A DNA stretch of 64,000 bases from Raillietiella orientalis (Eukaryota), in NCBI GenBank assembly GCA_036172245.1, contig JAYWIR010000026.1, positions 620,001 to 684,000 on the forward strand, read 5' to 3'. The notes below the pieces were generated by a model that was given only the letters and a program-made list of their open reading frames with translations, was not told the origin of the DNA and made no database searches. Positions 1 through 62,334 of the stretch are shown piece after piece. Position 1 is the first letter of the stretch; the number at the start of each line of letters is the position of its first letter. The position numbers and the translations under genes are program-made.

Positions 1-416
1 CCCTGCGTCCAGCCGCTAACCTGGCTCCACTTTGCTGCGTACGCGGGATTGTGACGTGCTGGAGCAACGTCAGAAGACCGAGCCACAACAGGGATGCCGT
101 CGTACTTGCAGTCCGCTACCTGCGGATTGTGACCAGATGGCCCCACCTGGGAATTATACGGACGGACCTCGAGGGCATCCTGCGAAGGATGGACCCTCCT
201 CCCAGTGGTCAGTGATCCCTCCCCAACCCTCCCAAATCTTTTTGTTTTTATGTTTTATTTTTCTTTTTGTTTTTTCCCCCACCCCCTTCCGCTGCCGAGG
301 AGAGTCGCGCCGGTCTGCGTACCGGCGACCCGGCAAGTCCAGTTGAGTTGGCCGTAGTGGGGCCTCGTACCACGAATCAAAGAGAATGTTTAATAAACGC
401 CCCGGCGTGACCGGAT
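1..416 (+). mobile_element. 3' end of an L1/Tx1-like non-LTR retrotransposon (ORF2 C-terminus 3-215, 3' UTR, terminal motif)
   Basis: Frame from base 3 reads LRPAANLAPLCCVRGIV...RWPHL...LEGILRRM, matching the ORF2 C-terminus at 24517-25191. It is followed by a T-rich UTR and AATAAACGCCCCGGCGTGACCGGAT at 392-416. Confidence 0.9.
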
Positions 417-1736
417 GGCAACTAGCAACTTGGCGTCCGCATTCACTATTGTTATTGGACTCCAGTTGTTCATGCTCCTCAGATCTCCTCCCTTAGGGAG
501 GAGCCGCACCTTTGCCGAACGAAACGAGGCGGGAACGTCACCTGTTTCGCGTATCAGCAAGGTGAGTTGCTGTACCAGGGGGGTGAGCTCAGCCGCGAAA
601 GTTTGATAAAACTCCGCGGGCAGGCCGACCTCCCCTGGAGCCTTTCGCCTCTTGAGCTTTCCGATGGCCGAGAGTATCTCGTCCATCGTGAAAGGCTCGT
701 CGAGGGTCTTTCTCTGCTCCTCCCGGATCGCTGGAGCGCTTTCCGGAAGCAGGAGTCGTGAGACGTTCCTCTCCGGAGGTGCCCTGGTAAACAGGGAGGA
801 GTAGTAACTCCGCAGCAGTCCGCGGATTTGGGCAGGTGCCGAGTGCTCCTGGCCCTGATCCTCCAGTAAGCTGCCCGATCCGGACTGCCAGGCTTGCCTC
901 TCGGCTCCTGCTTTGTATTCCGCCAGCCTGCGGATGTCGGGGGTCCTGGCGTAACGGCGAGCCTGCAGGTAGGCTCGTTCGTTACGGACCCTGGTCCCAA
1001 AACACGTAGGTAGAAGGTGAAAAGGGAACTGGTCGCAGAACTCGTAAACGGACCTTTTGAAGCAGTCCCAATCCTGGAGTGTCTGCATCCTGAAGCTTTG
1101 TCTGAACGTGTGGAGATGTTCCGTAGCGTCCGGGAGCTTAAGCCAGTCCCCTGGGAGACGCCACGCTGACGAGGAGGGGCCCCTGCGGCGCGGATGGATC
1201 TCAAGGACTAGCGGGCGATGGTCAGACAGCTCGCACAGAAACTTGCCGCGCCTGCCTACGCAAGGGCACAGGTACTCGTCAAGAAACACGTGCTCAATGC
1301 TGTCTTCCATCAACGGTGCACTGGCCAACAAATTACAGGTGTGCACCGCCATGCACACTTCGTTGGCCAGGTCACGCTCGGGATTCTGCCCATCTGGTTT
1401 CAGGCGAACGTTGAAATCGCCTGCAACCAAATGGGCATTCCGCACGCCTGCTTCGGTCAGCCAGTCTCGGCGGAGGGCAAAGAAAAACTCTTTCCTTGCC
1501 CTCCTAGTCATCAGGTCCGCGCCGCTCGGTGCGTACACGTTCGTGACGATCAGATCGATCGAGTCGGACCACCTGAGAGTCAGCTGGCCGACACGACCGT
1601 GATCGTCGAACCACATGCCCCGAACCGCGGCGTCGACGGCTGGCAGAAGCAGGGAGGCGACACCGCAACTTTTCGCTCTCCCACACGTTTACCATAGCCG
1701 CCCTCCGGAGATCCGTTCGATCTCCCGCGCTCGTAC
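417..1736 (-). mobile_element. Element A, downstream part: ORF2 APE endonuclease to start of RT (interrupted on both sides)
   Basis: ORF 390..1616(-) has NVYAP, GDFN, SDH, KAPGEVGLPAEFY and NWSPITIVNADAK. It continues the reading that stops at 7757. Confidence 0.93.
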
Positions 1737-1848
1737 AGTGCAGACGTGTTTCCGCGTCTTTCCGCGCCAACGATCGGGCAACTTTGTGCCTGCGTTTTTG
1801 CTCGCACTTGTGTGTTCCTGTGCAATCTGCCAAGTAGCATAGTGCAAC

Positions 1849-3528
1849 ATGGCCAGTACACAGGATAGTGTGGAGCAGCAAGCCACTGGATGCACTTCAG
1901 CTGCACTTGAAGTGGCCGCATCCTCCGTAATGGTTTCCTCGCCCCCGGTGAGGAGTTACGCCGTCGTTACCTCCCAAAGACCAGGACCCTGCGATGCGGA
2001 GTTCCAGGCATATGTGTCATCAGGATACATGCCTGCACTCCGTTATAATGTCAGTGGGCCACTTAACGGGAGAATCGGTCGTGAGCTCAATGATGAGCTC
2101 GTCCGGATAGGCGTTCGCGAGGAGGAACTCCTTGCCATAATGCCTGCTGGCAGGATGGAATATACGAAGATTCGGTGCAAGAACGCAGCACTTGTGCAGC
2201 GCCTTCTCCATACGCCGTTGACCATCAATGGCAAGGAAGTCCTACCTACCGCGATGGACGACTCTTTTGTCGTTCAATTGTGCGACATCGAACCGGAAAT
2301 CTCCGACCGCGATGTCGTAAGTGTGCTGGCGAAGTTCGCCACCGTGCACGCTCTGTGGAGGAGGCCAAATCCTCTAAAGGATTTCCCCTCTGTCCACATT
2401 GGACAAGCCTCCGCGAGGATCACCGTCGCGAACAGGCGGGTTGTGCCTGAGCAGCTGCAGGTGAACGGCACGGTCGTTCACCTGTGGTTCATAGGCCAGA
2501 CTCGCGCGTGCGAGCAGTGCGGCAAGGATGGGCACCGAATTAAAGAGTGCCCCTCTCCAAGATGCCGCTATTGCAAAGATTTCGGGCACGAAATCAAGAA
2601 GTGCCCGGTACTTGCAAGAAAAAGAGCCGCAGCGGAAATTCGTCGGGTTCAAGAGACCACTGCACGAAAAGCCGCAGCGGCAAATAAAAAACGTCGTCTG
2701 CAAAAACTCGAAAAAAACCACGAGCGATCCGCGGATAAAAAGAAAGCATCCCCGCCCGCAACGCCCCGAAAGGGGAAAGTCACGGCGGGGAAGCCAATTA
2801 AAAAGGGGCGCGAGGGTTTGACGCGTGCCGTGCCTTCCCTCTCTGCCGAACTCGCAGGCACCTTTCCGAACCTGGAACCAGGAAATCTCCGTAACACCCT
2901 GGAGGGAAAGGTAGGAAAACAGGAAGATCGCAACAGTGCGAAGACTTCTTGCCCCGTTCCGTTGTCCCTTCCGAGTTCCGGACAGCCCCACTGCAGCGCA
3001 GGCCCCACTGCAAAGGCTACAAAAGCCGTAAAAAGCAGCGTCGCGACGAGCAAAAGCACGCTGCATGCAGTCGCCCCATCGCCGACTCGGCAGGAGAGGA
3101 GCAATCTCCCGACTGTCAAGAAGGTGACTCCGTTGCCGCCTTTTAAAGGCGTAGCGAAAGCAACGCCCCCAGAGAACGCAGCGAAAATCCCGGAGGTTTC
3201 CGCAACTACTGTCGCGGAAGCTTCCGAAAATCGCGAAGGCGAATGGAAGGTTGTGGAGAGGAGGAAAGAAAAATCTCCAAACAAAGCTCCGCAACCTCCA
3301 TCCCTGAGCTCTTCCAAAGGAAAAAGCAGTCGCGCGAATACGAAAACACGCGCGGCTTGTGACTCTTCCAAGGAAAAAGCCAACGCCTTCAACGCGTGCA
3401 AGTCCGCTTCTGTGACCGCCGAGAAGACCATTCCGGTGCAATCGGACCGATGCAAGCGCACGTCGATCGTGCGAGCATCAGACTTCGCAAAGGAGTCCGA
3501 TAACGTGCCAGGCCCCCCCCCCCATTCA

Positions 3529-3559
<31 letters not shown>

Positions 3560-3833
3560 AAGTGTGTGTGTGTGTGTGTGTGTCGACGCTGAACGACGCG
3601 TTACTCGCGTGGAAGCGATCGCCCGCAGGGCTGAAGCCCTGAGACGTGACACACTCGTCGCGAAACGGCGATTGCTCACCCCGGAACCCACAGGTTCTGC
3701 ACCCGGGGAGGAGCACTCGATTACGTGCAGCACAGTTGAGGCCGGTGGCGACTGCGCCCTCCAGCTTGTCGTGCTACTTACTGTCCGCTCGCCAAGTGAG
3801 GCGAGCACCACGGCCTTGCTTTCCCAGCCGTGA
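1849..3833 (+). pseudogene. ORF1 of element B (gag-like, two CCHC zinc knuckles), frameshifted by a low-complexity insert at about 3510-3583
   Basis: CEQCGKDGHRIKEC and CRYCKDFGHEIKKC. The C-terminus continues in ORF 3564..3833, homologous to 31141..31740. Confidence 0.9.
3513..3583. repeat. Compound low-complexity tract: C-run, T-run, A-run, (GT)n
   Basis: Directly visible, and absent at the homologous position of the relative near 31490. Confidence 0.95.
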
Positions 3834-6800
3834 TGAGGGCAATCGCGTCTCCTCGTCGTGTTGTTGGGACGTCTTGAAACTTCAACGGGCTCCAACACGA
3901 GGAGAAGAGGCGACTAGTGGCTGACACTCTGCGCGCCTTCTACTTGACGCTCCTGCAGGAGATTCACAGCATCTCCGAAGAGCAGGCTGCCGAAATCGAA
4001 CGGCGCGCGGGCGGAACGCTACTTTATAGGTGCGGCGTTGCACGTACGTGCGGCGTCGCTTTCCTCGTGCGAGGAACTTTGGCGGGAGCGGTGCGCAGCG
4101 TTCGTTTCGACACGGACGGCCGAGTGGGACAGCTTGTACTCAAGTGGTCCGACTCGATCGACCTTGTCGTAACCAACGTGTACGCGCCGAGCGGTGCTGG
4201 ACGATGGGCCGAAAGGATTGAGGTCTTCGGTACCCTTCAAGGCCAGTGGCTCACTCGATCTCACCCTACTGTGGCCCATCTCATTGCGGGGGACTTTAAC
4301 GTCCACCTGCTTTCCGAGAATATATCCCACAAAAGGGAAAAGTTGCTAGCGGAAGAGATGTGCGCGTCCGTGCACGCGTGCAACTTGTTCGCTAGCGACC
4401 CTGTTATGGCAGCAACGCCGGACCACGTATACCTTGATGAACACTTGCTCTGTCGAGTGGGTCGGAGAGGTCCCGTGCTGTCCGTGCTTTCAGACCACAA
4501 CAGGCTCGAGTTCGAGTTGCTCCCGCCAGGCAAGGGGCCTCCAAACTGTTTTTGGAGGATGCCGGCAGACTGGCTAAGCCACCCGGAGGCGGCTGAGCAT
4601 CTTCGCCAGTACCTCCTCGGCTGTGCCATAAGTGAGCTCGAGGACTGGGACGATCTGAAAAGATCGGTCCGCGAGTTCTGCTGCCGGTTTCCCTTGCACC
4701 AGCTTCCGCGCGACTTCGGAGAGGGCGTAGCCAACAGCAGAGATTTTCTGCAGGCCCGCTCCTTTTCCAGGCGCGCGGACGTTGGTCGATTATCCGAGTA
4801 CAAGGCCAAGGCCGAGCGCCAGGTCTGGCAGTCAGGGGCGACAGTTCTGCTCGACGACCAGGACCGCGAATGCTCGGCTCCAGCCGACGTGCGACGGATA
4901 GTCAGGCGCTATTACTCTTCTCTGTATGCAGAGGCACCGACGGAACGCAGCCTCTCCCGGCTGCTTCTGCCGATTGATGCACCTGTTGTAGACGAGGTGG
5001 ACCGCGCGCGTCTTGATGAGCCCTTCACGGCAGAGGAAATTTCCTCGGCCATCTCTTGGCTCCAAAGACGAAAAGCACCAGGCGAAGATGGGCTCCCTGC
5101 GGAATTCTTTTAGTGTTTTGCGGCGGAGCTCATCTTCCTGGTGCTCCAACTGTCGTCGCTGATGCGAGACTCGGGCGATGTCCCCGCCTCGTTTCGATCA
5201 GCGAAGGTGCGTCTACTGCCGAAAGGCGGAGATTTGCGCCAACTGAACAACTGGCGTCCGATCACATTAGTGAATTCAGTCGTCAAGTTGTTCTCGAAAC
5301 TTTGGGTGGCGCGGATGGGTAGGATCGCAAAATCCTTGGTAAGTCCGGAGCAGACGTACGCTGTTCCTGGGCGGTCCATGGACGCGAATCTCTTGTTCAT
5401 CCGCACATGGCTGCAATTGCAGCATCGTGTGGCGGTGGATCGTCGGGCGGAAGCGACGCCTTCGATCTCTCACCGACGGAGGCGCGGGACGCAAAGGGAG
5501 ACACCGGGAGCCTTGGCGGTTGCAGTCGATCTGCACAAAGCTTTCGATTGCGTGAACCAAAAGCGTCTTCTTGAGCTTTTGGAACGTCTGGGTCTTCCGG
5601 CATCCCTGTTGGCGTACTTGCGCTCCTGCTGGCGCCACGCGATTACATCCATTGTTTTCAGTGGCTGTCGCGTGTACGGCGTGCCGGTACGACGAGGAAT
5701 TAGGCAGGGTGACAGCTTAAGCCCGCTGCTTTTCAGCATCTATTTTGAATTGGTGCTGGAGGCTTACAGGCTGACGCTAGCCAACCTGCCGAGCTCCTGT
5801 CCAGGTACGCCTGCCGTGGCAGCCTATGCCGACGACCTGCTTCTCCTGTTGCCCATGTCCACCCCGACAGCGTCGCTTGAAGATTTCTTTGAGTTTATCC
5901 GTCGTGGTGCGGGCGTGAGCGTTAACAGGAGTAAGTGTATGGTTGTTCCGGTTGGTGCGACGTGGGAGGGGCAGTCCGACTGGATCGACCTGGGGATCCC
6001 CACGGGCAGGTACCTCAGGTACCTTGGCGTGCCGTTGGGCGACTTCTGCGTCTCAGAAGCGTGGTCGGACTGCCTTCGGAAGGCAGAGCGTGCACTTAGC
6101 CCGTTTTCAGGAGGCGAGTTCGTCTTGCCTGAACGGGCCTGCATCTGGAACACCTTCGTTGCCCCCCTCCTCCGCCCCCTGTTTTTTGTTTGTCCACCCC
6201 CCCAGGAAGTCAAAGTCTGGGCGCAGCGCCTTCTACGCAAAGCGTTGTGGGGCGCTGCAAGATCCCGTGTTAGACTTAAAGACTTGGTGGCGCCGCGTCA
6301 GGATGCAGGCTTGGGCATCCTCGACTTAAACAGCATCGAACTTCAGGTGCAGTTTCGCATGCTGCGGCTCTGTGCCAAGCTGTGGTGTACGCCGTGGTGC
6401 TTACCCGCACGCCTTATACTGAGGCGCTGCACGGGAAGCGAGGGACTGCTTTCGTTGCTACCCCACTTTCGGCACACCAGAATAGGGTTTGGCTTCCCGC
6501 TGAGGCAGCTGTTCTCACTGCTGGAAGCCCAAAGCTGGATCTCCTGCCGCCCCATGAACATTAATGCATGGCGGCAGGAATCTTTTTCATCGTGGGCAGC
6601 TTCCGAAGGAACGCGCCCGGAAGATCTTCGACGCCTGCGACTTCTCCTCAGTCATCAAATGGACGAAGTCATGCAGGACAAGAAGTTGTCGGATCGTCTG
6701 TCCGCCACACCACTCGCCGTAGCGCTGTCTGCCCTCAGGGCAAGCAACGACGGTTGCCTACCGGCGGAATGGGAGTTCTCCTGCAAAATAGCGGGAGTCA

Positions 6801-7405
6801 GTAAGCTCCTCGGCAGCTGGACGACAAAGGAGCTGGTGCAAGCCGCCACACCTCGGAATCGGGCGAATGGACTGCTTCGGTGGAGCGAACATTTAAGTGT
6901 GCCCCCCGGAGAGATAGTGGTTCCCCCCGTTTGTTTGGACAGCTCCGTGTTCCCCCTTAAGTGGAAACAAGATGTGCTCCTCTTTTTACATTGTGCATTT
7001 CACTGTAATAGGCAGCGAAGCATCGTTTCCGGGGGAGCTGCTTTGCCAAACTGTTTAAGGTGCGGAGAGATCGAGTCTTTTCCGCACCTTTTGCTGGACT
7101 GCGGTGACCTCCGGGAACTGTGGCGAAGGCTCACTTCGGCCATCATGCCACAAGGAGGCACTGCCATTGATGTGCTGCGGCGCTTCGTCAGCAGAAATGG
7201 ACTTTCGGTTGGCGCGATTGTCGCAACCATATGTTGCGTTCGCACCATCGTGAAGGCCCGCTACGCCCTGGAGTTGTCAACGCAGCGAAGGCAGGCTCAC
7301 CTGCTTGCAGCTCAATTCATGGAGAAGGCTTCAAGGTGGTCTCATCTTCGTGACAAGGTGAATGAGGACATCACCGGCATACATCGCCGGTTTACACACC
7401 TTTGA
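3833..7405 (+). pseudogene. ORF2 of element B (APE endonuclease, reverse transcriptase, C-terminal CCHC finger) with two in-frame stops
   Basis: One frame from ATG 3833 to TGA 7405 with stops only at 3875 and 5111. Motifs LQEIH, NVYAP, GDFN, SDH, DLHKAFD, GIRQGDSLSPLLF, YADD, YLGVP, CLRCGEIESFPHLLLDC. Confidence 0.96.
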
Positions 7406-7756
7406 GAACGGCGTAATCCGGTGACCCCTGCGACCTCTCGCCCACCCATAGCCCGTCCCCGTTCGCTCGGTAAAATTTCCGGTGCCCATGCTTTTATCCC
7501 CGTGTCTTCCAGAGCGATCCCAAAGACCCTTATCCCGTCCTCCTTATTCATTGTTTTTATTTTATTTTGGTTTCTTTGTGTTTCCCGCCCCCCCACACCG
7601 TTCAAGAAACTGTTACTCTGGCCTGCGTGCCAGCAATATTCTCTTCATTCTTGTTCTGTCGTCGGTTGGGAGTTTGGTTCCCAACTGGTTTATTTTAAAT
7701 AATTGTTTTGTGTTTATGTTACACGGAATAAACGCCCCGGCGTGACCGGGTGAGAA

Positions 7757-8515
7757 ATCTCTTGCGCTTGTTCTGCATAGATCACGTGGATCTCCTGCAG
7801 CAGCGCAAGGTCGAAGGACTCCAGAAGGGCGGCCATGTCGCGTCTCCTGCCGGCGTCTTTCATGCCGTTCACGTTCCAAACGGCGATGCGCAGACGACGG
7901 CGGGAGGAACTTCCCGGCATTACTGCTGGGAAGATTAAGGTGTGGGGGAGCCCGCCTCTTGCGAGGCGGGCGGGATGTCCATCAAGGTTTCGGCTTTCTC
8001 AGGCACCTGAGGCACCTGATCGGCCTCCACCCCCTCCATCCCCTCCGTGTCGGAGATTGGTAGTCTCTCAGGCGACGGGTCCAGCGAGTTTCCCACGCTC
8101 TTGGCACCCTCGCTTCCGGAAGCCATCTCTTCCCCTTCGACGCGAGAGACGATCTTCCTCGGCTTTGGGGACTTACGTCCAGCCTTCTTGCGGGGCGCCG
8201 TGGAAACGGAGGCTGCGCTTCCAGCCTCCACCTCGGGGCCGGAAGTGGGGGACTCCTGAGGGAACGTCGGACGCCTTACGGCCTTCTTACTAGCTTTGGT
8301 GGGGGCTGGCTGCAGCGAGGCAGCCAGCTCCTCCGCCGCTCGCGCGAAGGCTACGTCATCGATGGTGGTGTCCATGACGGACGACGCCACTGGCTCGCTC
8401 CCCTCGCTGTTGACAGAGTCAACAGAGGGGAGCTACCGACGACCAAGGTTGGTCGTCGGTAGCGGCGAGTTCTTCCTGGCAGCGTTCGATAACATCGAAA
8501 CGGGTTCCATGACGA
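7757..8515 (-). mobile_element. Element A, upstream part: ORF1 C-terminus and ORF2 start
   Basis: ORF 7714..7920(-) reads MPGSSSRRRLRIAVWNVNG...LLQEIHVIYAEQAQEI. ORF 7935..8390(-) DDVAFARAAEELAASL matches the ORF1 segment at about 26730. Confidence 0.9.
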
Positions 8516-8519
8516 CGCT

Positions 8520-11500: not shown

Positions 11501-12650
11501 TGCCTGCGGACTGGACTACCTGGCTCCAGGAGTCCGTTTCCGCATGGGCGAAAATAAACGGCTCCAGCGAAGAGGACTTCTCCTCCCTCCGTAGAGGAAG
11601 GCACGCTGGTCAGCCACTCCAGGAGATCATATGCAACCCACGGAAACTTCTGTGGGCGTCCTTCACCCTCCTGCCCCCATGCTGCCCTCCCTCAGGGAAG
11701 TTCGGGACAGCCAACATGAGGCATCGAGGGAAGTGTCCTGCTTCATCGGAGGCAGGAATAAACTATTGAAGGCGTGGACGTCAAGGGAACTAGCGGACGC
11801 TAGTACAGCCCCCGTCCCGCCGAACGGACTTTTACGCTGGAGCGCGCTGCTCGACATACCTACGGAGAAAGTGAAGTTGCCCCCAGAGTCTTGGGTCAAA
11901 GGCACCCTTCCCCTGCAGTGGCAGGAGACGGCGTTGCTGCTGCTCCATTGGGGAATATTAAGCAGAGCATGCCTGTCTCACTAGACATCGGGGAGTGTGG
12001 ATGCCAACTGCACAGAGTGCGGGGAACGGGAGACCTTCCCCCACCTGATTCTGGAGTGTGTCGCCCTCCGAGAGATATAGGACCGACTCTGGTCGATCCT
12101 GAACATTCCGGTGGGCGACCCGAAAAACATATTCACACGCCCCCTGATGCGGGACGCCTTGCCAGCTTCCGGGTGTGTAACAGTACTTTATTGCATACGG
12201 GGAATCCTGGACTAATAGACCGCGTCAAGGAGAGAACGCAAAAGACGGAGTGCCATGCACTGGGCAGCCATTTCCTTGGAGAAGGCCTGCCTTTGGCACC
12301 GACTTCGAAAACATTCGGCGGCACTTGTTCGCATCCGAAACCGGATGCAGAGGCCTCCTCTCGGCGTACCGTGATCCCCCCCCTTTCCCCTCCCCTCCCA
12401 AACACATTGCCCCTCCCCAGTAGTTTTTCTTTTTTTGTTTTCTTTTTGGTTTTCCCGCCCCTGAGCCAGTGTGGAAGACCTAATCGGCCTGCGGGTCGCT
12501 AAGGACAACTGCCATAACAACGACAAACACAAATATGATGACCAAAAAGACCAACATTATGAACGAAAAAGTCTATATTTTGGAATTTTTTCTTTACTTA
12601 TGATTGCGAAAAAATTTTAATAATAAAAGCCCAGGCTCACTCGGATCAAC
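11500..12650 (+). mobile_element. 5'-truncated retrotransposon 3' fragment (ORF2 C-terminal region plus 3' UTR)
   Basis: WLQESV, LLRWSALL and PLQWQETALLLLHWG, plus a zinc-finger remnant. Degenerate terminal motif AATAAAAGCCCAGGCTCACTCGGAT at 12622-12646. Confidence 0.88.
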
Positions 12651-12651
12651 A

Positions 12652-20480: not shown

Positions 20481-20549
20481 ATATCATTCCCTACATGGTG
20501 GACCGTTCCATTCTGATCCACATAACGGAAATGGAAAAATCCGCGGCCA

Positions 20550-23500: not shown

Positions 23501-25437
23501 CATGAGTCCCCTGCTCCTTAGCAGCTACTTCGAGTTGGTGCTGAGAGCGTAAAGGGCAACTTTGTTAACCTTGCCGAGGTCGTCTCCCGGCACGTCTGCC
23601 ATGTCGGCCTATGCCGACGAACTTCTGTTCCTGCTTCCCGGGTCCCATCGGCATCGGCGATCGAGGAGTTCTTCGACCTGCAAAGTCGGGGAACCGGGCT
23701 TGAGGTGAACAGGGCAAAGTCGTCCATCAGGCCAATCGGTGCGGCGTGGGCAGGGCAGCCGGACTGGGTCCGTTTGGGGATCCCCACGGTACGGTACTTC
23801 AAGTACCTCGGTGTACCGATGGGTGATTATCTCCCTTCGGATGCGTGGTCCAGCTGCCTTCAAAAGGTAGAGACGGCGATCGGCCCGTTCCAAGGCCGCA
23901 GGTTTTTCCTACCGGAACGGGCCGCGGTGGGAAACGCATTCGCGGCGCCCCTCCTCCGTTCCCTGCTTTTTGTTTGTCCCCCCACCACAGAAACTAAAAA
24001 GCGGACGAAGGACCTCCTAAGGATTGCCCTGTGGGGTAATGGGAGGGCCCGAGTCCGGCTTGAGGACTTGAGCGCTCCGCGTCGGGACGGCGGTCTCGGC
24101 CTCCTGACGCTACAGCGGCTGGAGCTCCAGCTCCAGTTTCGGTTACTCGCCCTAGTGGCGGAATATTGGAGTAGCAGTTGGTGCGAGCCCGCACGTCTCC
24201 TCGTCGAGCAGGCTACAGGCGAGGTGGGACTGTCATCCTTCCTTGCTCTCCGTCGTCGCCGCCAAGTTGTCACTGCGGGTTGCAGCTACGGAGCGTGGCT
24301 GACCTGATAAGGAAGAACGCAGGAAGGCTCTGCTGTCGCACCGTTAACGGACCTGCATGGCTGCAGGAAACGGTTCAGACGTGGGCAAGGAGCAACCAGC
24401 AACGCACCCAAGAAATGCAGACACAATTCTTCCCCCGTAATGACCGCCTGACGCTCCGGGAGGTCCTGGAGAACCCCCAAAAACCAGCGTGAGCAAGAAA
24501 AACTCCCCTCGCTGCAATGCTGTTTCCGCTCGCGGAACATTCAAACGGCAACACTGCTGCGAAATGGGATGTTTACGTAAAAATCTCCGGTACGGAGAGA
24601 AAGATCGGGGAATGGAAAACGGGAATTCTCTGCGATACCGCGGCCCGGACTACCACCCCTATTGGGCTTTTGCGCTGGGGCGAGCTGCTATATGTTCCGC
24701 GGGAACAATTAAAGTGGCCCCAGGTGCTGATGAACACCTCCACTTTCCCCTTAAAATGGCAGGAGTCGGCGCTATTGTTGCTGCATTGGGGACTCCCCTG
24801 CAACGCCCGCCGACACCATTGGACCTGGGGAGCGGAGAGTCCTAATTGTGCGAGGTGTGGAGAACAGGAATCCCTCACTCACGTCCTTTTGGATTGTGTG
24901 GCTCTTCGGCCCCTTTGGAACCGTTTTGCCGCGGCAATCGGTAACCCCTGTGGCAACCCCAGAGACGCAATTAGATCCCTCTTCCTTTGCGATGCCCTCC
25001 GGCCCTCGGCCTCGTTAGCAGCTCTGTGCTGCTTTCGCGGGATCGTCGCTGCATGGAGCAAGGCAACGGGAGGACCTCGCGATAAGGGTGCCGTCCAGTG
25101 CGCAGCCGAATTTATGCGGACGGCGACAGGATGGACCCATCTGGATTCAAATATCCAAAAACAGCTTGCCGGCATCCTGCAAAGGATGTAACGGCCCCAC
25201 AGCAGACTGTGATCCCTTCCCGTGCCCCCCAGATCTTGATTTTATATATTTCCTTTTTTTGTTTTATTTTTTGTTTTGTCCTTGGCCCCTCTGCTGTCGT
25301 GGTGGACCGTACCGGAATACGAACCGGTGACCCGGCAGGCTTAATTTTGTATACCAGTGCGTGGCCGGACCACCTGGTCAGCCACCAACGTTTGTTTTAT
25401 TCCAAAGAATAAACGCCCCGGCGCAACTGGGTGAAAA
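20550..25437 (+). mobile_element. Element D: 5'-truncated copy (partial ORF1 with knuckles, decayed full ORF2, 3' UTR)
   Basis: CAICKKFGHLKKRC and CPTCGAKDHTKVVC; SWNVNGL, NLYAP, DLRKAFD, GIRQGNSMSP, YLGVP, CARCGEQESLTHVLLDC. Terminal motif at 25408-25432. Confidence 0.93.
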
Positions 25438-25439
25438 AC

Positions 25440-27930
25440 GAGCGAGAGCGGACGGGTTTTTGCTTCGCTCTTGAACGTTTGTGGTTTTATTTTTTTTCTT
25501 TTTTTTCTTGGTGTGCCAGTGCATTCGGTGGTGGCTAGGCAGCAATGCCTGGGACCACCACCAATCTTAAGGAGGGGGCGACGTCTATGTCTCCCCCTGA
25601 ATCAATGGATGTGGGAGCAACCGCCCCCACAGAAGCGACACCCTTGTTAGGGAGAAGCTGGAGTTCCGTGGCTGCGGCGCCAACGCAAGCGGCTGCGGCT
25701 GAGTTAAAAGCCTACCTGGAGGAGGGGTACAATCCCCCTCTACTCTACAAGGTAGGCAACCTTTACTCCTTTGAGAGTGCACGCGCTTTCTCGAAAGCGA
25801 TGCACTCCCTCAAAGTACTACAGGAGGAGTTCTTGGCGATGACCATCAGGAGTGGTGGACAGTACGTTGAGGTGATTTGCAAAGAAGCAAGTCTTGCCCA
25901 GCGTCTGCTCCGTACACCTGTTCCTTTGGGGAATCGCCGGCTCCTCCCCATCACGGAGGATAGATCTATCGTGATCCACCTCCTCGGAATCACCTTCCGG
26001 ATGGCCGAAGAGGCTGCCCGAAATGAATTAATTAAATTTGGAACCGTCCACGCGTTGTGAAAAAGCCGACTCCGTTTTGGGAGTACGATCTGCTGAATTG
26101 CGGTATGGCTTCCGCGCGCATCACGGTCCGCGAGGGTTGCTCCCTACCTAACAAGCTGCAGGTCAACGGCGAACCCGTTGACATCTGGTATGTCGGTAAG
26201 CCGCATTTCTGCGGGCATTGCAGCACTTCAGGTCACCTGAAAAAAAGGTGCCCCCACTTGCAGTGCAAGCCATGCAAGCAACCCGGGCACACTTCCAGTG
26301 TGCCCTCAAAATGAAGTCCGCGTCGCGTTTGCACGGAATGCGAAGAAGCGCGCGGCGAAAAAAAGAAGAGTTCAGGCAGCCCGAGAGAGAGCCGCCGCTC
26401 GAAAAACAACTATCGTGCCCCAGGTGAAGGTCAGCTCCGAGATCTTGGAAAACTCGGACAAGGTAGAGAACGGCCAGGAACCTGAATGGCAGGTAGTAAA
26501 ATCCAAGAGGCAGAAAAGCTTCAAGGAACCAAAAAAAAATGTCGCGAAACGCAGCGAGAATTTGCCGCGTCGCGAAAAGATCAAACGCTGCTCTGTCGTC
26601 ATCAAGCGCATTCCTGCGGTCGAACAGAGCGCCAAAACCGAACTCGTCGCTGCCGACTCAACCGTCCGGCAATGTAAACACGAAGGCTATCGATCTTGCG
26701 GTGGCGTCCGTCTTCGCACGGATGCTCGATGACGTCGCCTTTGAGCGAGCGGCGGAGCTCGCTGCGTCCCTACGTCCCCTTAAGGTCGTGAAAAAGGCCT
26801 TAAGACGTCGGAACCCCAAGAAGTCGGAGGATACGGACTGTGCCGCGGAGGGAGAAAGCATAGCCAGCGGCATCGCGGTCCCCCCCAGAAGCCCAGTCAA
26901 ACTTTCGCGGCGGAGCTTACTCCCCTGGTACATTAGCTCACCCTTGCTGATTCGCGAGACAGGTGACGTTCCCACTTCGTTTCGTACAGCAAAGGTGCGG
27001 TTCCTCCCTAATGGAGGAGGCCTGAGGAGCATTAGCAACTGGCGTCCCGTCACAATAGTGAATGTGGACGCCAAGTTGGTAGCTAAGGTTTGGGCAGAGC
27101 GGCTGGGACGGGTTGCCAACGCTTTCATCAGTCTGGAGCAGACATATGCTGTTCCTGGGCGGAGCATGGAGGCGAACCTGTTCCACGCTTCCACATGGTT
27201 AGAGCTCCAACAAGAAGCTTATTGAACAACCGGAATTCCGGTGCGTACGTCGGTGAGACGGCATGGACGGGTGGGGAAGGGAGCCCTTGCGGTCGCTGTC
27301 GACTTGTGTAAAGCATTCGACAGCGTCGACCAGAATCTCCTGCTGGAGCTTCTGGAACGCTTGGGCTTCCCGGCCTCTTTGTTGGCCTACTTGCGCACCA
27401 GCTGGACAGATGCGCTCATTAACGTCTTTTTCAGCGGCCATACCGTGTACCTGAAGTCCCTGGGCGACCCGTTGGTGAATTCTGCCTTTCAGAAGCCTGG
27501 TCAGGTCGTCTCCAAAAGTTAGAACTGGCAATTGGCCCGTTTCTGTAAGGGAACTTCCTTCTGCCGGAACAGGTACCGGTGTGGAACGCGTTCGCAGCCC
27601 CAAACCTCCGCCCCCTACTTTTTGTTTGCCCCGTCCACGTAGTAATAAAGAGGACGAAGGACCTCCTCCGCATCGCCCTTTGGCGCAAGGGCAGGTTCCT
27701 AGTCCCGTTGAAGGTCTTGTGCGCTACGCGTCGGGACCAGGTTTCGGCGAAGGATTCAGAAATGACGGCGCGTACCTACACTCCCGTCCTCACTCCAAGA
27801 ATTCCGACGTCCGACGCCTGGCGGAATAGAAAGCTTGGGCTGCGAGACAGACCTGGCAGTCCGGGTCGACCAACTTTCTGGACTTCCAGGACCAAGAGCG
27901 CTCAGCCGCAATACAGGCTCTTCAACCGGG
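25440..27930 (+). mobile_element. Internally deleted and rearranged copy: 5' UTR and ORF1 fused at about 26900 to RT pieces
   Basis: ATG 25545, CGHCSTSGHLKKRC, then a jump to NWRPVTIVNVDAK, DLCKAFD and WNAFAAP. Confidence 0.88.
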
Positions 27931-28029
27931 TAAGCCTGCGCTTTTATTATGACACTTTCATGATAGAGTTTTGTCACTTGTACTGAGTTTATAGTCAAAA
28001 CGATGTGTTCTTAATATATAGGGGTACCT

Positions 28030-28600
28030 GTCCTTACCGACCACAGGGCGGTAAAATCCTCTCTACAGGCGAAGGGCTTGAGAAAACCAGAAGAAAAACA
28101 AAAACGCATGGGAGTACAATAGTTTGTGTAGGGGAGTGAACGAGAAAAATAACGGCACGCAAAGAACAGCACTCTGCATCCGGCTTTGGATACGGACCTA
28201 TTTGGGCAGTATTTTTCTTAACCGGCGTCATCGTGAAGCATTCTCTATTGAGAGGACTGCCCAGTGGATAGTTTTCCGACTCCTGCGACCAGTTCTTGAC
28301 GCGGTAGCCTCATCCAGGATTACGGTTATGCAGCAGAGAACTGCAACAGATGCGTGGGCTGGCAGGTCGTCCCGCATCAGGAGGCGACGAAAAATCTTTT
28401 TAGAGTCGCCCAACGGAAGCTTTAGGGTACACGACAGTCGATCCCATATGAGGCAGAGGGCAATGCACCCCATGATTAAATACGGGATGGTCTCGCTTTC
28501 CCAGCACTCTCCACTACTGGCATCCATTCTCCCGAATGTAGAGACAGCCGTCCTCTGCATGAAAATCCTCAATGGAGCAAAGCAACGCCTTCTCCTGCCA
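28030..28600 (-). mobile_element. ORF2 C-terminus and 3' UTR fragment
   Basis: ORF 28228..28674(-) is homologous to 11980-12350 (CWESETIPYLIMGC, VLCCITVIL). Confidence 0.85.
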
Positions 28601-28609
28601 ATGCAAACG

Positions 28610-30062
28610 GAGGGAGCCGTTGTCCCATTCTCGCGAGAGAAAAATGGCGGAAGCGTGCGTGGGGTTCCTTTCAACGATCATGAACTGGTGGGCCAACTTG
28701 TAGTCAAGTGGTCCGAGTCCATCGTTCTGGTGGTAACGAACTGGTGGCGCCCAGTGGCTCTAGCTACCTCGATGAAAGAATTGCACTCTTCGAGGACCTA
28801 CGGAGATGTGCCAGCTATGAACGACTTCTTTCCTTGGTGCCTGGCATGCATCGCAGAAAACAGGGATTTCGCAGTCCTTTGAGGCAACTTGCCAAACTGC
28901 TCGAAACCAATTCCTGGATTTCCTGCCGCCCAATGGAATACAATTCTAGGCAGTAAGAATCCGTTGATACTTGTGCTGCACTCCTAGGAATGAGCCGCGA
29001 TGATAATCACACCCTGCTTCAATTTCAACTTTGGCCGCTGCAAGATGTGATGCAGGACGAGGTGAACATTTCCACCCTGGCCGCCACGCCCCCTGCCGAA
29101 GCATTGTCTGCCCTCGAGGTTCGAGAGGACAGTAGCCAACCGGCAAGGTGGGAGTTCTGCACCATCGCGGGAAGAACGAGATCCCTCGGCGAACGGGACA
29201 CGAGCGACCTGGCGGATGCCCCACTCCTCGTGCTACAGAAAAGGGACTACTTCGGTGGAGAGAAGCTATTGGTGTTGCCCCCGAGGAACTGATAGTCCCT
29301 CCCTACTGTTTGGACGGTTCGGTGTTTCCCCTTGCATGGAAGCAAGACATCTTGCTCATCTTGCACCGTGGCTTGCGCCATAACGAGCGGTGATACCGAG
29401 TTTCCGGTGGGATGGCTTATCCCTAGTGTGCCAGGCGCGGGGCGACGGAGTCGTTCCCGCACCTTGTTTTGGACTGCGGAACCCTCCAGGAACTCTGGTG
29501 GAGGTTCACAAGTGCTGCGACGGTTTTTCCAAGCGCAAGGACTTTCGACGGCTGCGATGATTTCCACAGTTGGTTGCATCCGCGCCATCGTCACGGTCCG
29601 AGACGTGCTGGAGAACACTGGTCAGCGATGCTGTCACCAAAAAGGCAGCCGACTTTATCAGGGTGGCAGCTGGGTGGCGACACTTGAGTGAAAACGCAAC
29701 GGAGGAGCTTACCGGCATTTATCGCCGGATGAACAACGGTTTCCAACGACGAACCCGGTGATCCACCTCCATTCCCTTTTAACTGCATTTTTCTTCTTGC
29801 GCCCCTCCTCCCATTCACTCTGTAGTGCTTTTGGTGCTATCGTCCTTTGATTTTCCTGGTGACTGAGGAGCGTCACCAAAGTTCCCTGGCCCATTTTTCT
29901 TTTTTGTTTCTAGTCCCCTCCTCCCCCAGTCGTTCAAGTTCTTCCGTTTTCCTGGCCTGTGTGCCAGTAGTGCATCTCTGTTGTAGGTTTTCGTAGTCGT
30001 TGGCTGGAAACAACTGTTTCCAGCTAGTTTATATCAACAAACGTCCCGGCGTGACCGGATAA
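28610..30062 (+). mobile_element. Deleted copy: endonuclease piece joined to ORF2 3' region and 3' UTR (B-like)
   Basis: GQLVVKWSESI, SWISCRPM and FPLAWKQDILL. Terminal motif at 30036-30060. Confidence 0.88.
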
Positions 30063-30067
30063 TAAAT

Positions 30068-32509
30068 TTTAACGTTAGCCTGAAACCAGATGGGCCGAAT
30101 CACGAGCGAGACCTGGTCAACGAGGTGTGCATGGCAGTGCACACCTGTAATTTGTTGGCCAATGAACCGGGGATGGAAGACAGCATCGACCACGTGTTCC
30201 TTGATCAGCACCTGTGCCCTAGCGTGGGCAGGCGCGGCAAGTTACCGTGTGAGCTGTCCGACCATCGCCCGACAGTTCTCGAGTTTCATCCGCGCGACAG
30301 GGACCCCCCCTCGTCAGCGTGGCGCCTCCCAGGGGACTGGCTGAAGCTCCCGGACGCGGCGGAACAACTCCGCGCGTTCATACGGAACTTCAGGCTGCGG
30401 ACACTTCTGGACTGAGACCGCTTCAAACGGTCGGTCCAGGAGTTCTGCCACCAGTTCCCTCTGCACCGCCTACCTCCGGAATTTGGGGATGGGGTACGTA
30501 AAGATAGGTCGTATCTACAGGCACGACGTTACGCCAGAACCCCCGACATCCGCAGGCCGGCGAATACAAAGCGGAAGCCTAGAGGCAAGCCTTGCGTTCC
30601 GGATCGGCCAGCTTGCTGGAAGATCGGGGCCTCAAAGCCAGCAGCCATGAGCCAAGAGCAGCCTCTCAAAAACAGGTAAACGCGACAAAAACCGCGAAAA
30701 ATCATGGCCTCCTCTGCCACAAAGCCCCGAAAGAGAAGTCGCGCAGCAGGAAAACCAATTAAGAAAGGGAACCGGGGCTCCCCGGTAGCCCCCGCTGCCG
30801 AAAACGAAATTTCCGTTCCGGGAAAGGGGTCAACGAAGCCCGATAAACCTTGCAACAATGCGAATGCATGAGCAGAGAATCGCCATAATGTGGGAACCGT
30901 CACGTTGTTCATTTCGGGAGCTTATATGGCCACCCCTAAAAAGGCTGGTAGCCCGGCGACAAAAGCCATTAACACCGGCGGCGGTCGCATCACAACACAC
31001 CGCAAACAGTCGCATCCTCCTTAACGCGGCAGTCGAAGAGCAATCTCGCAAATTCCGCCGAGGCGGCTCCATGGCCGCCTTTTGCGGGTGCAGCGAAACC
31101 TGTATGCAAAGCGACTGGGGCATAAATCCCGGAGGCGTACGTGACGAAAGTCGTGGAACCCTCCGAAGGAACGGACGTGTGGAAGGTTGTGGAGAAAGGG
31201 AGAAAAGTGAAATCACCCAAAAATTCTTCGCAACCATATTCCAAGAGCATCTGCAAGGCAACGAACAGTCGGGGGATGAAGAATACTCGCGCCAAAGTTC
31301 CCTCTGCCGTAGCAAAATCCACCGCCGTTATCGCGCAAAGCGCGAAAGCTGCGATCGCCGGGAACGATGCCCTGGTGACCGCCAAAAAGGGGGTGACCGC
31401 GTTTCCATCCGCGATCCCTTCCGAATCGACGCGGCAGGTGAGTCGCGAAGCGTTCCCGCGTCAATCAGACTCCGGAACGGAGTTTGATATCACCGCCGCA
31501 CGTCGGATCACCCTCGCAGAGGCGGTAGCGCGCCGGGCTAATGCCCTCACACGCGCAGTGCAGGCCGCGAAGGAGCGAGAGCTCACCCCGGAGCGTCAGA
31601 TGACGTTACCCGAAGATGAGTACTCGATTTCGTGCAGCACCTTGGAGGGCGGTGGGGACCGTGATCTCCAGCCAGTAGCCCTGCTTACTGTCCGCTCGCC
31701 AGTAAAAGCGGGCAAAAAGCCGCCGCCTTCCCAGCATTAATGTGGGGAATCGCTTCTTCTCGTCGTCTGTCCGTCGCGTGTTGGAACGTGAACGGACTGC
31801 AGAACGGCGGCAAGATGCGATTGGTAGCGAACGCCCTGCGCCCCTTTGACCTCGCGCTCCTGCAGGAGATTCACGTAATCTCCGACGAGCAGGCTGCCGA
31901 AATCGAAGAGCGCGCAGGCGGAACTCGCTACTTTGGCGGTGCGGCGACCCACACACGTACGGCGTCGCGTCCCTCGCAAAAGGAAAAATGGCGGAAGCGG
32001 TGCGTGGTGTTCGTTTCGACGACGACGGATGGGTGGACTAACTGGTTTCAAGTGGGCCGAGTCCATCGACCTCGTCACGAGCATCTACGCGCTGATTGAC
32101 TCTGCCTACCTCGAAGAACTGTACTCTTCGAGGAAGAGAAGAGCCACTGGCTCAACATCTGCTCCCAAGTGCCGCACCTCGTCACGAGGGGACTTCAACG
32201 TTCGCCTGCTTTCTTACTACTGGAGCTACCCGGTGGAGCGATCGCTGACTCTCGAGATGTGCGCGCTAGTGCACGCGAACAACCTGCTCACCAGAGAACC
32301 TGGGGAGATCAGCAGATCACGTCTTTCTCGTTCAGTGCCCGTATTCCCGTGAAAGGAGAGCAGCATAAGTGGAATTTGTATTTTGCGATTGACGATTACC
32401 CCAGTTTGAAGCTGGAGTTTGTCACCTGACATCGGGTCTCCTGTTAAAGTCTGGAGAATGCTTGTGGACTGCCTTAAAAGTAAGCGCCCCAGCGTAACCG
32501 GGTAAAAAA
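30068..32509 (+). mobile_element. Mosaic: A-like endonuclease fragment (to about 30630), B-like ORF1 C-terminal half, ORF2 start, then terminal motif
   Basis: CMAVHTCNLL...SDHRP; ORF 31141..31740 is homologous to the B ORF1 end; MWGIASSRRLSVACWNVNG; motif at 32479-32503. Confidence 0.88.
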
Positions 32510-32510
32510 T

Positions 32511-53330: not shown

Positions 53331-55399
53331 CAATCCGAAGATCGTTGCCAGTGGACGGGGAGGATGGATCGTTGTGGGGTGCCAAGAAGAGCGGATAGTT
53401 TGCAGAGAAGGGTTTGGCCCGCCAGGAGGAGAGGAACCCTTTTCTTCTAAAGGGAAGTGGGAAGGGCTGCGATGTCCCGCCGTTAGCTTTGTGTCTGCGC
53501 ACTCCAATTGCAAGTGCTGTGGAAGCGAAAGCACTGCGTGGCCCAATGGATGCAAATGGTGGTTCGAAATTCCGAGTTCACTCCCCATGAAAAAATGATT
53601 TCCTAAGAATATGAGCATCTCTGCCTTCCTACATTTGTTTTTCTATCTATTTTTCGTTTTCTCTTTCCCTTTTTTTTCTTTTGGATTTTTTTTCTTTTGT
53701 TCTTTTGATCTCTTTTTTTTTCTTGTTTTTTTTTTCTTGTTTTTCCTTTTGATCTCTTTTTTATCTTTGAGGGATTCCACTTACAACTTTTATTTTTAAT
53801 AAAAATTGCCATTGCCACCTCTTTCGCTTACAACCATGGTAAAATGGGGAGAACACGAGCTTCAGAACAGAGTAACAGACTCAACATTTAAACAAAATGC
53901 AATTCCCACGGGACAACTTTCCCAACCTACACAAAACACATAAATCACGTCGCTGACCGGAGGTTCGAATAATTTTAGCGACTTTCGATCCCCTATGAAA
54001 AAAAAACAGACAAACACTGGGGACCTCCATTTAATAAAGACGGCCATGAATCGGAGACGAAACACAAATCCCCAGAAACACAAATTCTTGGGGAACTCGA
54101 CCGGAAAGAAATTTCCAATTTCGATGAGGACGAGGGGAGATGCAAACAACATCGGGGAGATTCATTTCCGAACGTTTTGCAGGGTAAGCATTGCTCCTGG
54201 AGAGAGCGAAGGGATAGTAAGCCGCTGGAAGGGATGCTTCGATGGATGGATTTACTAAATGGACAGAGCGGTGACACGAGCATTCCCACTGACGGCCACC
54301 GCCTACCTTGACGACCGGGTTGCTGTCCTTTGCCACGCAGCAATGACGGATGAACTCTTTCCCTTCTGCTTCCATTGGTGGATGGACGGTTTTTTTTTTC
54401 GTGTCCTTTTTCTTCTTCTCCGTTTCCTTTTTGCTTTCCTTTCTGCGCTACCTGGAAGTTACATGAGCAACGGATTCGCTTGGGAAACGTGCCCATTGCT
54501 TCCCTTTGCGCAAGGATACAACTTTTTGAGGATAGCGACAGTTAAAATATTCCGATCTAGAGCGTGAACGCGCGGAGAAGAGAAGCACATGAGGGATGTT
54601 CGTTGCGAACGTTTCCTGGGGGATGGATGGATCTCCACAGAGAAGGGCGTGTGCGGAAGACGGTGGTGGGGAGGTTCAATGGATGGTTACAGCAGACGTT
54701 TTTTTTTTTCGTGTCCTTTTTTTTTTGTCTCCCACTTTGTTTTCTCTTTGCAGCACACTTCCATTGCACGCTGTGAATTTTGTCTGTCGTTAATGAGAAA
54801 GTATCTGATTGTGGAATATGTGCTTTCTATGGTTTTTCTTTTCATTTGAGTTTTCAATTGCGCATGATTCTCCGTTTGCTTTTGTAATTGTAAGATGTTA
54901 ATTTCTTTTCCCTCGGAGAATGGTTGTCGTGGCAACGGCGACGTTGATCATTCGGATTTTCCGGAGCTGTTTTTATTGAAGTCGAAAAGGCAGAAAGATT
55001 TCACATGAAAGTCTCCATATGATTTTCGTTATTGCACTCTTTTTTTCCACTTTTGGGTATAATTTGCCGTTAATCGTTGCAGAAACCGGCGAGTTTCTCT
55101 CGAGCACCCATAATGGAGGGGAAAAGGAAACAAAAATTAACGTAAGAAATTCGGAATCGGGAGAAAGCGCTGTTTATAGGGATAGGTATGGATCGGAATG
55201 AATTTCAGTTCTTCCTGTTTTGACCCCTGCATCCTCTTCACGATGCTGACAAGTTTTGCATTGGAGTTTCTCCGGTGCGGTCATTTTTATACACTCTTGA
55301 AAAACATCGTTGTTCAGTGCATGGCATCCCTGCTGTTTGTCTTTCTTCTTTTGGCGTTCCACCGCGTCACTTTTCGGTGAACACTGCAGAAAGCTGCCA

Positions 55400-60719: not shown

Positions 60720-60778
60720 CGATATTTATTTTATTTTTTTTCCTCCGCAATAAACACCCTGGCGTGACCGGATTAAAA
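60720..60778 (+). mobile_element. Very short element 3' terminus (T-tract, terminal motif, short A tail)
   Basis: AATAAACACCCTGGCGTGACCGGATTAAAA starting at 60749. Confidence 0.7.
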
Positions 60779-62300: not shown

Positions 62301-62334
62301 TTCCGCAGAATCCACCCCTCATGCAAGAGGAACC

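Follow-up and report, generated by a model that had tools for sequence, protein, structure and literature searches.

We analyzed a stretch of 64,000 nucleotides (nt) from the genome of Raillietiella orientalis (assembly GCA_036172245.1, contig JAYWIR010000026.1, positions 620,001 to 684,000 of the forward strand), referred to here as the window, with respect to a short sequence, the terminal tag, in which the copies of a family of retrotransposons without long terminal repeats (non-LTR retrotransposons) end. The window is rich in nested non-LTR retrotransposon copies, with tblastn matches at 12-13016, 19584-33057, and 55412-57735. The best-preserved copy is a near full-length L1-like element on the plus strand (1731..7755), comprising ORF1 (1843-3642), which has weak matches to CCHC zinc knuckles; an apurinic/apyrimidinic (APE)-type endonuclease (EN) (3878-5113; Exo_endo_phos, 1.2e-7, 32.2 bits against a cutoff of 24.5); a reverse transcriptase (RT) (5114-7405; RVT_1, 1.5e-20); and a 3' untranslated region (UTR) (7406-7755). 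This copy is not intact: ORF2 contains in-frame stops, one just before the first conserved EN residues and one at 5111-5113. The end of ORF1 (approximately 3540-3642) passes through an A-rich and (TG)n-like stretch, translated ...KKKKKKKVCVCVCV..., and a Pfam search of ORF1 gave no match to Transposase_22. Matches to zf-RVT stayed below the Pfam cutoff of 27.5 bits, at 26.2 bits in the sister copy tagged at 25408 and 14.9 bits in the 1731-7755 copy.

Among proteins of solved structure, human L1 ORF2p was the best match both for the RT (1.1e-20, compared with 6.5e-14 for R2) and for the EN-RT linker (1.1e-9). HMMER searches returned 17 database relatives, the best of them 59% identical and the others approximately 25%; these relatives carry PF13966, and the nearest Atlas clusters likewise carry RVT_1 and zf-RVT (PF13966). 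The family is L1-like by this comparison, in which relatives of solved structure served as a proxy for a reference phylogeny of named long interspersed nuclear elements (LINEs). An earlier note on this DNA, made from the sequence alone, had assigned the family to an L1/Tx1 type. The L1 part of that assignment agrees with the combination of APE and RT and with human ORF2p as the nearest solved relative, whereas the Tx1 part is not supported: the single-target hallmark of Tx1 is missing because the four delimited insertion sites differ, lying at RT amino acid (aa) 60, EN aa ~45, EN aa 338, and EN aa 139 of older copies, with unrelated flanks.

The 23-mer AATAAACGCCCCGGCGTGACCGG was found without mismatch at 392 and 7727 (two matches, against 0.01 expected by chance), and with up to three mismatches it was also found at 25408, 30036, and 60749, giving five matches where 100 shuffles predicted 0.00. 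All eight copies of the motif listed in the earlier note were located, including the degenerate ones at 12622 and 32479 and a truncated one on the minus strand at 61120, and two more were added on the minus strand, at 27948 and 54977, bringing the total to 10. The copy at 27948 is the same variant as that at 12622. The copy at 54977, which reads AATAAA-N7-CCGG-AAAAT-CCGA, was found with a loosened pattern (0.00 matches expected by chance) and sits at the expected 3' end of the minus-strand element copy 57735-55412. The sample for all that follows is these 10 tag copies from one 64-kb window. Together they define a terminal module of approximately 30 nt, consisting of AAUAAA, then CGCCCCGGCGUGACCGG, then RU, and then 4 to 6 A-rich nt. 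All 10 copies have AATAAA or a version of it with one or two bases changed; the two nt after the second CCGG are conserved (R, T), the T being invariant in all 10, and the remainder is A-rich.

The individual modules differ in detail, the two CCGG sequences being referred to here as the 5' and 3' arms and the 5 nt between them as the loop. At 392..421 (+), AATAAA occupies 392-397, the GC-rich tag 398-414, and the tail ATGGCAA 415-421. The module of the full-length copy (7727..7755, +) has the tail GTGAGA, possibly with one or two further A residues, and that at 30036..30064 (+) has the variant AACAAA and the tail ATAATA. The variant at 12622..12650 (+) reads AATAAAAGCCCAGGCTCACTCGG, with the tail ATCAAC, and the module at 27918..27948 (-) has the same variant and the same flank. 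The module at 25408..25438 (+) has the loop CGCAA and a G-U in the 3' arm, with the 5' end of the next element adjoining, and that at 60749..60778 (+) has a U-G in the 5' arm. At 32479..32509 (+), AGTAAG is combined with a CCAG arm and the loop CGTAA, and the module is joined to EN-coding sequence that ends at aa 233. The module at 61091..61120 (-) is cut off after CGTGA and lacks the 3' CCGG, and the divergent copy has a probable module at 54945..54977 (-), reading AATAAA-N7-CCGG-AAAAT-CCGA-ATGATCA.

When element copies were ascertained independently of the motif, by tblastn matches to the RT C-terminus, 7/7 carried the tag 220 to 350 nt downstream, with its orientation and its distance from the RT C-terminus fixed in all seven. 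Two weak fragments resembling the RT C-terminus, at 61736-62575 (+) and 60369-60533 (-), were left outside this count, their 3' UTR being gone; no tag motif was seen in 62400-63200, downstream of the first of them. The copy at 60749 has approximately 215 nt (60534-60748) between the nearest RT-like fragment and AATAAA and no RT match on its own strand nearby, and we estimate its extent at approximately 245 nt.

The 3' end of the element could be delimited at four junctions without recourse to the tag, by means of homology to the host copies that are interrupted there. Homology of the flank to the older copies starts at 422/423 downstream of the tag at 392, at 7756-7758 downstream of that at 7727, at or before 12651 for 12622, and at or before 30065 for 30036; the hosts are interrupted at antisense RT aa 60 (392), antisense EN aa 338 (12622), and sense EN aa 139 (30036). 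At all four junctions the element ends 6 to 8 nt past the second CCGG, and 4 to 6 of these nt are A-rich, in agreement with the short tails with almost no poly(A) reported in the earlier note. No tandem repeat, homopolymer, or microsatellite was found at the 3' end of any copy, and the variable-length poly(A) tails that characterize relaxed L1 elements are absent from the four delimited junctions. AATAAA ends 21 to 24 nt before the four element ends, which is the canonical spacing between a poly(A) signal and a poly(A) site. These results demonstrate that this L1-like family has a conserved terminal tag and no A-tail: the tag lies within the element, at its extreme 3' end and at a near-constant distance from that end, with neither homopolymer nor repeat. 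The genomic copies lack A-tails, and reverse transcription was therefore not started at random inside a poly(A) tail.

In DNA run X1, one contig tracks the element to 7758 and then enters a different flank, sharing the nonhomopolymeric tail GTGAGAAA, and thereby shows another copy with this same end. Another contig joins at 422 with a different preceding sequence and is a loose end. The contig evidence at 422 and 7758 is thus one contig each, with the usable ends being among the loose ends listed, and runs X2 and X3 matched only the C-run near 7550-7594.

The 1731-7755 element is itself inserted into an older antisense copy, whose EN frame reads ...YAEQAQEI on one side of the insertion and REIERISGG... 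on the other. The corresponding uninterrupted EN reference sequence is EEQAAEIERRAGG, with no tag motif at that position. Excision of 1731-7755, tag included, closes the antisense EN frame (AEQA(Q/R)EIER) and leaves a 12-bp target-site duplication (TSD) that is identical at 9/12 positions; its left copy, GATCTCCCGCGC (1719..1730, +), duplicates codons A-(Q/R)-E-I of the interrupted EN, and its right copy is AATCTCTTGCGC (7756..7767, +). Because excision restores the host EN frame and leaves this duplication, the tag is part of the element and not of the target. The TSD is imperfect and came to light when the interrupted frame was read; scanning nine copies for exact words of at least 9 nt returned only presumed chance matches, including those at 7727, 60749, and 54977, and the other copies are old and rearranged. 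A TSD was recognized at 7727 only.

Several delimited insertions lie antisense within older same-family copies at 423-1733 (-) and 7756-7875 (-), at 12651-13016 (-), and at 60369-60533 (-), and the first 13 kb show three or more levels of nesting. At 25430-25560, the A-rich tail of the copy tagged at 25408 is followed head to tail by approximately 105 nt of apparent 5' UTR and then by the next ORF1 (from 25545), which suggests insertion at or beside the A-rich end of a resident copy. At 32026-32509, sequence homologous to the EN-coding region extends as far as aa 233 (position 32475), and the final ~32 nt of the element come immediately after it; either an internal deletion spared only the terminal tag of this copy, or the insert is an extreme case of 5' truncation. 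The regions 12612-12764 and 27958-27806 align colinearly and without gaps at 69% identity, through the junction and into the flank, so that the tag copies at 12622 and 27948 are not independent but represent one duplicated composite rather than two insertion events. The flank shared by the pair, which lies on opposite strands, is an antisense EN fragment (EN aa ~338 downwards). Either an old insertion underwent a later duplication and inversion, or a composite unit was mobilized in one piece. The fragment 27743-28797 lies inside another copy, at a point between RT aa 397 and 436 of the latter.

The tag is far better conserved than other parts of the element. For the 23-mer, mean pairwise identity reaches 0.85 among the six main copies and 0.74 among all 10, compared with 0.45 to 0.50 in the unrelated downstream flank and in each of the 23-nt bins upstream. 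The 3' UTRs, described earlier as poorly alignable, do not align, their mean column identity being 46%. Coding DNA is 65 to 72% identical among copies; at the protein level, the RT core is 47 to 63% identical to the reference and the C-terminal third approximately 35%. Between 392 and 7727 the tag agrees at 23/23 positions, yet the last 61 RT residues of the same two copies are 34% identical. The conserved island is approximately 25 to 30 nt long, has sharp edges, and is present in at least seven lineages, and the divergent copy at 54977 (-) retains CCGG-N5-CCGA in place despite an altered spacer and loop. The pair at 12622 and 27948 has diverged by approximately 31%, but its 23-mers differ at 3/23 positions, a count read by eye from the alignment and suggestive only. 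Conservation of the 3' end sequence thus exceeds that of the rest of the element across lineages.

The earlier note had interpreted the tag as a CCGG-C-GNRA-CCGG hairpin by which the template is selected. In the alignment of the 10 copies, the CCGG stem with one outer pair (five pairs) has 78% of its cells paired, compared with 75.3% in shuffled controls, and 81/500 shuffles were as good; the four core CCGG pairs show no compensatory double change. Pairing that is no better than in shuffles and the lack of compensatory change do not support hairpin-based recognition. The two G-U-compatible stem changes described previously are real (25408 and 60749), but the CCAG of 32479 creates an A-C mismatch and the 12622/27948 variant an A-G mismatch. 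Likewise, a C followed by GNRA is present in 7/10 copies, but the loops CTCAC, CTTAC, and AAAAT do not fit, and the generalization to GNRA fails. Decay of CpG as the source of the stem changes was rejected, the observed/expected ratio of CpG being 0.94 in the window. Because CpG is not depleted, the stem changes are ordinary transitions, about half of which preserve a G-U pair by chance.

Other helices compete for the same nucleotides. An overlapping helix, ACGC-CCCG-GCGU, has 85% of its cells paired, a value reached by 6/500 shuffles, and one CG-to-AU double change, in the 12622/27948 variant pair. A slipped 7-bp helix, preferred by RNAfold and RNAalifold for some copies, is 77% paired, with 264/500 shuffles as high. 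Isolated 30-mers fold at -2.3 to -9.8 kcal/mol, with the choice of helix differing between copies, and in a context of 109 to 150 nt the CCGG hairpin was part of the minimum-free-energy (MFE) structure in 1/7 folded copies having it complete. What speaks for the arms mattering is the most divergent copy, 54977 (-), which keeps CCGG-N5-CCGA with a different spacer and loop. From the sequences, the CCGG arms can pair, and the evidence that they do is weak.

Better structural evidence than for the terminal hairpin comes from the sequences farther upstream, where a candidate hairpin, designated A, lies approximately 65 to 110 nt before AATAAA in most copies and approximately 140 nt before it in the copy at 12622. 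Its loop is conserved (CTGCGT, CTGTGT, CTGCTC, or CTGCGG) and its stem is variable. The hairpin is found at 308..328 (+) in the copy tagged at 392 (CCGGT / CTGCGT / ACCGG, stem 310-325), at 7616..7636 (+) in that at 7727 (CTGGC / CTGCGT / GCCAG, stem 7618-7633), and at 29950..29970 (+) in that at 30036 (CTGGC / CTGTGT / GCCAG, stem 29952-29967); the remaining members are at 25309..25329 (+), 12482..12502 (+), 28034..28054 (-), and 61200..61220 (-, with one mismatch) in the copies at 25408, 12622, 27948, and 61120. Across these seven copies, 85.7% of the cells are paired, which 0/500 shuffles reached, and 3/6 pairs are changed on both sides. RNAalifold recovered hairpin A unaided. The seven members were chosen by eye, and a covariance model built from them returned at E < 0.1 only its seven training sequences and hence gave no independent support. 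In the portions of the two papers drawn on here, conservation of a hairpin's loop together with covariation in its stem is the classical signature of stringent LINE tails (Ohshima 2012, PMC3472496; Hayashi 2014, PMC4176376).

A further hairpin, B, has stems of 10 to 11 bp whose sequences are unrelated in the three copies having it: 7664..7688 (+; 10-bp stem, present in the MFE and centroid structures), 30003..30024 (+; 11-bp stem), and 61145..61169 (-; 10-bp stem), in the copies at 7727, 30036, and 61120. The longer UTRs all open with a U-rich tract followed by a C-run. U-rich tracts also lie upstream of AAUAAA, and folding pairs them with AAUAAA in several copies. The order read in 240-421, 7555-7757, 25240-25438, 29900-30066, 12425-12651, 28150-27918 (-), and 55150-54945 (-) was a U-rich tract (TTTTTGTTTT-like), a C-run, hairpin A, hairpin B, a U-rich stretch whose bases can pair with those of AAUAAA, then the GC tag, and last a few A-rich nt. 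The 3' UTR thus appears to be modular despite its unalignable sequence.

Searches for relatives of the tag were negative within their scope. Rfam gave no match at gathering score across the window and none at E values up to 5 over 7400-7800; this includes the UnaL2- or R2-type family, if Rfam has one. The shortest tagged copy, at 60749, has no tRNA-derived head. A pattern scan of metagenomes returned 16 loci, which were rejected as chance matches in unrelated DNA, none with RT homology by tblastn, and the eight prokaryotic matches from a pattern scan of genome contigs were likewise attributed to chance. An RT scan of viral contigs found no relative.

The rest of the window differs in composition and content. 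GC content ranges from approximately 37% to approximately 62%, the LINE-rich parts being the GC-rich parts, and the CpG observed/expected ratio is 1.05 in the full-length element and 0.78 in the AT-richer region 33000-55000. An open reading frame (ORF) of 265 aa with no Pfam family occurs twice, at 14488-15285 (-) and 59198-59995 (-), with 96% protein identity, and a short third fragment lies at 45460-45586 (-); from this it looks like a different, younger repeat family. Another 14 ORFs in the window matched no Pfam family. At 26500-27225, an ORF inside a LINE copy gave a subthreshold Pfam match to a capsid family of filamentous double-stranded RNA viruses (E = 1.1e-4, 22.1 bits against a cutoff of 27), which is most likely spurious.

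To judge from these sequence features, there is about an even chance that the module acts as a 3' cis-element of the stringent type combined with an RNA end defined by AAUAAA. AAUAAA would set the 3' end of the RNA approximately 21 to 24 nt downstream, as the spacing indicates. The element's own machinery would then recognize the GC-rich tag beside the RNA end, possibly together with the covarying hairpin A, and target-primed reverse transcription would begin at a fixed nucleotide, with little or no poly(A) being copied. The outcome would be stringent-type template selection in Okada's sense, with the tag read either as a hairpin or as sequence. Of the earlier proposal of stringent, structure-based selection, the stringent part is in keeping with the conserved terminal tag and the lack of an A-tail, and the structure-based part is not sustained. 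In favor of a stringent cis-element stand the tag as an island of conservation, its occurrence in 7/7 copies with an RT C-terminus, the four junctions delimited near it, the ends free of tandem repeats, the TSD and the host frame recovered on excision, the covarying hairpin A, and the precedent of stringent LINEs. Several results weigh against it. The sample is 10 copies from a single window, two of them nonindependent; no short interspersed nuclear element (SINE)-like partner was found in the 64-kb window, in which the number of tRNA genes was 0; and a TSD candidate was found in 1/9 scanned copies and is imperfect. The terminal hairpin has no covariation beyond shuffled controls and has competing helices, the members of hairpin A were picked by eye and their covariance model found no further member, and the z-scores of the 3'-terminal 109 to 150 nt (-0.48, -2.12, -1.66, -1.65, 0.01, 0.27, -1.10, and -0.39) are mostly unremarkable. 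Finally, the contrast of an unchanging tag with an ORF2 C-terminal domain that has diverged strongly could indicate that the reader is a host factor rather than the RT; a host factor would fit, and so would a part of ORF2 that is itself conserved, for instance the EN-RT linker, by analogy with ZfL2. A stronger form of the proposal, which we put forward tentatively and hold to be less probable, is that the lineage is L1-like, old, strictly stringent, and free of repeats, and that in it a tag of approximately 30 nt, perhaps with hairpin A approximately 65 to 110 nt upstream, fixes the start of the cDNA beside the poly(A) site. With the tag near-invariant while ORF2 has diverged to 35 to 63% identity, this form would imply, just as tentatively, that the reader is very conserved, being the EN-RT linker, as in ZfL2, or else a host 3' end factor that the element has co-opted.

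A competing explanation, which we regard as doubtful though worth serious consideration, is that the module is a self-contained 3' end formation signal and nothing more, in which an upstream U-rich element and AAUAAA are followed by a GC-rich spacer setting the site of cleavage. Because a LINE has no means of carrying a downstream element in the flanking DNA, it would need such a signal, and the requirement for a defined RNA end would keep the signal conserved; the short tails would then mean that the RNA is little adenylated or nonadenylated, or that the RT starts at the terminus by cis-preference, with no sequence being read. The presence of AATAAA or a near variant in every copy, its canonical distance of 21 to 24 nt from the four delimited ends, and the U-rich tracts that pair with AAUAAA in several folds all suit such a signal, as does the invariance of the tag while the ORF2 C-terminal domain stands at approximately 35%, which fits a host machine as the reader. 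However, the stretch between signal and cleavage is here the most conserved DNA of the whole element, and this stretch is not known to be normally constrained in sequence. Furthermore, poly(A)-primed reverse transcription of a polyadenylated RNA should leave A-tails of variable length, and none was seen at the four delimited junctions.

The remaining explanations require no recognition of the tag. Its sharing among copies could reflect exchange of 3' ends, by template switching or gene conversion, or common descent with sparse sampling, in the absence of functional selection. The identical 23-mers at 392 and 7727 in otherwise unalignable UTRs and the single duplicated composite behind 12622 and 27948 are what such processes could produce, but conversion tracts would be expected to drag the UTR along, and the island measures only 25 to 30 nt, with sharp edges, in seven or more lineages. 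Moreover, the most divergent copy keeps CCGG-N5-CCGR in place while spacer and loop have changed, and the few differences between the 23-mers of the 12622/27948 pair after approximately 31% divergence point, suggestively, the same way. We therefore consider exchange or descent improbable. Least credible of all is the idea that the motif is a preferred target sequence in the flank, the case that the earlier note had itself named as telling against its proposal. Nothing was found in its favor, and it is contradicted by the host frame and 12-bp duplication recovered on excision of 1731-7755 with the motif, by the intact EN of the reference copy, which has no motif at that position, and by the fixed orientation and distance of the motif relative to the RT C-terminus in 7/7 copies.

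If the tag directs initiation, the family would represent L1-like stringent template choice with neither a poly(A) tail nor a 3' repeat, would bear on Ohshima's (2012) question whether the L1 clade was ancestrally stringent in its recognition, and would offer a very short, well-delimited RNA element for the biochemistry of template choice and positioning by L1-type ORF2p. On the strictly stringent form of this proposal, an L1-type enzyme would have in the tag a compact, naturally occurring label of its template. Should the tag be merely a 3' end formation signal, the finding would be ordinary. In addition, the tag can serve to locate 3' junctions, nested insertions, and possible nonautonomous partners precisely when this genome is annotated.

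The comparisons with known systems draw on the relevant sections of the papers cited. R2 resembles the family described here in that it lacks poly(A) and has a structured 3' UTR that is bound by the element protein to start target-primed reverse transcription, as cited in the Discussion of PMC4176376. R2 differs in its restriction-like endonuclease and single ribosomal DNA target; the present family has an APE, four differing sites, and an RT that matches R2 more weakly than L1. With mammalian L1 the family shares the domain order of APE, linker, RT, and a putative C-terminal Cys-rich domain, as well as AATAAA near the 3' end. Mammalian L1, however, depends on poly(A) and leaves it behind (PMC3472496), whereas the present elements end 6 to 8 nt past the tag, and ORF1 here has CCHC knuckles and no Transposase_22 match. 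Grem-LINE1 of Mucorales is similar in its described architecture, with a zinc finger ORF1, an ORF2 with AP endonuclease, RVT, and zf-RVT, and a 3' poly(A) signal, and its copies cluster in gene-poor regions (bioRxiv 10.1101/706580). The nearest Atlas cluster by features is mostly from Mucoromycota. Grem-LINE1 is nevertheless no close kin, the likeness being one of described architecture and the HMMER sequence relatives being only approximately 25% identical.

Closer parallels for the 3' end are found among stringent LINEs. Such elements need a 3' stem-loop, which in ZfL2 is bound by the EN-RT linker (Hayashi 2014, PMC4176376), and the L2-clade elements UnaL2, ZfL2-1, and ZfL2-2 share with the present family a 3'-terminal cis-element and independence from poly(A) (PMC4176376; Kajikawa and Okada 2002 as cited there). 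In the account given in PMC4176376, the UnaL2/ZfL2 cis-element has a loop that is sequence specific and a stem that is needed as structure, and it is read by ORF2. UnaL2 differs in belonging to the L2 clade and in its (TGTAA)n slippage repeats (PMC3747384), there being no repeat here, and the tail requirement is experimental in UnaL2/ZfL2 and inferred in our case.

Within the L1 clade, the concept of stringent recognition is already in print (Ohshima 2012, PMC3472496). In the sections of that paper drawn on here, the last 45 nt of the monocot LINE1-1_ZM lineage diverge by 0.144, compared with 0.570 overall, the lineage has a hairpin with a conserved loop and flank and compensatory stem changes, and its SINE partners are ZmSINE2/3. 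Chlamydomonas L1-1_CR shares its tail with SINEX-3_CR (PMC3472496; review PMC3747384). Stringent recognition was proposed there to be ancestral in plant L1s, and 5/15 green-algal L1 families have no 3' repeat (PMC3472496; the same in PMC3747384). The present family resembles these lineages in terminal nucleotides that are far more conserved than the remainder (0.85 compared with approximately 0.47) and in a candidate hairpin with a conserved loop and covarying stem, namely, hairpin A. It differs from LINE1-1_ZM and L1-1_CR, for which SINE partners are described, in having none within the window, and from L1-1_CR and SINEX-3_CR, both of which have poly(A) repeats at the end (PMC3747384), in having neither poly(A) nor a 3' repeat. 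The motifs are also unrelated, CGAG/UCU in the lineages of Ohshima and CGCCCCGGCGUGACCGG here, where AAUAAA is embedded in the conserved module. What is specific to the present family is this embedded AAUAAA, a tail entirely free of repeats, and how deeply ORF2 has diverged while the tag persists.

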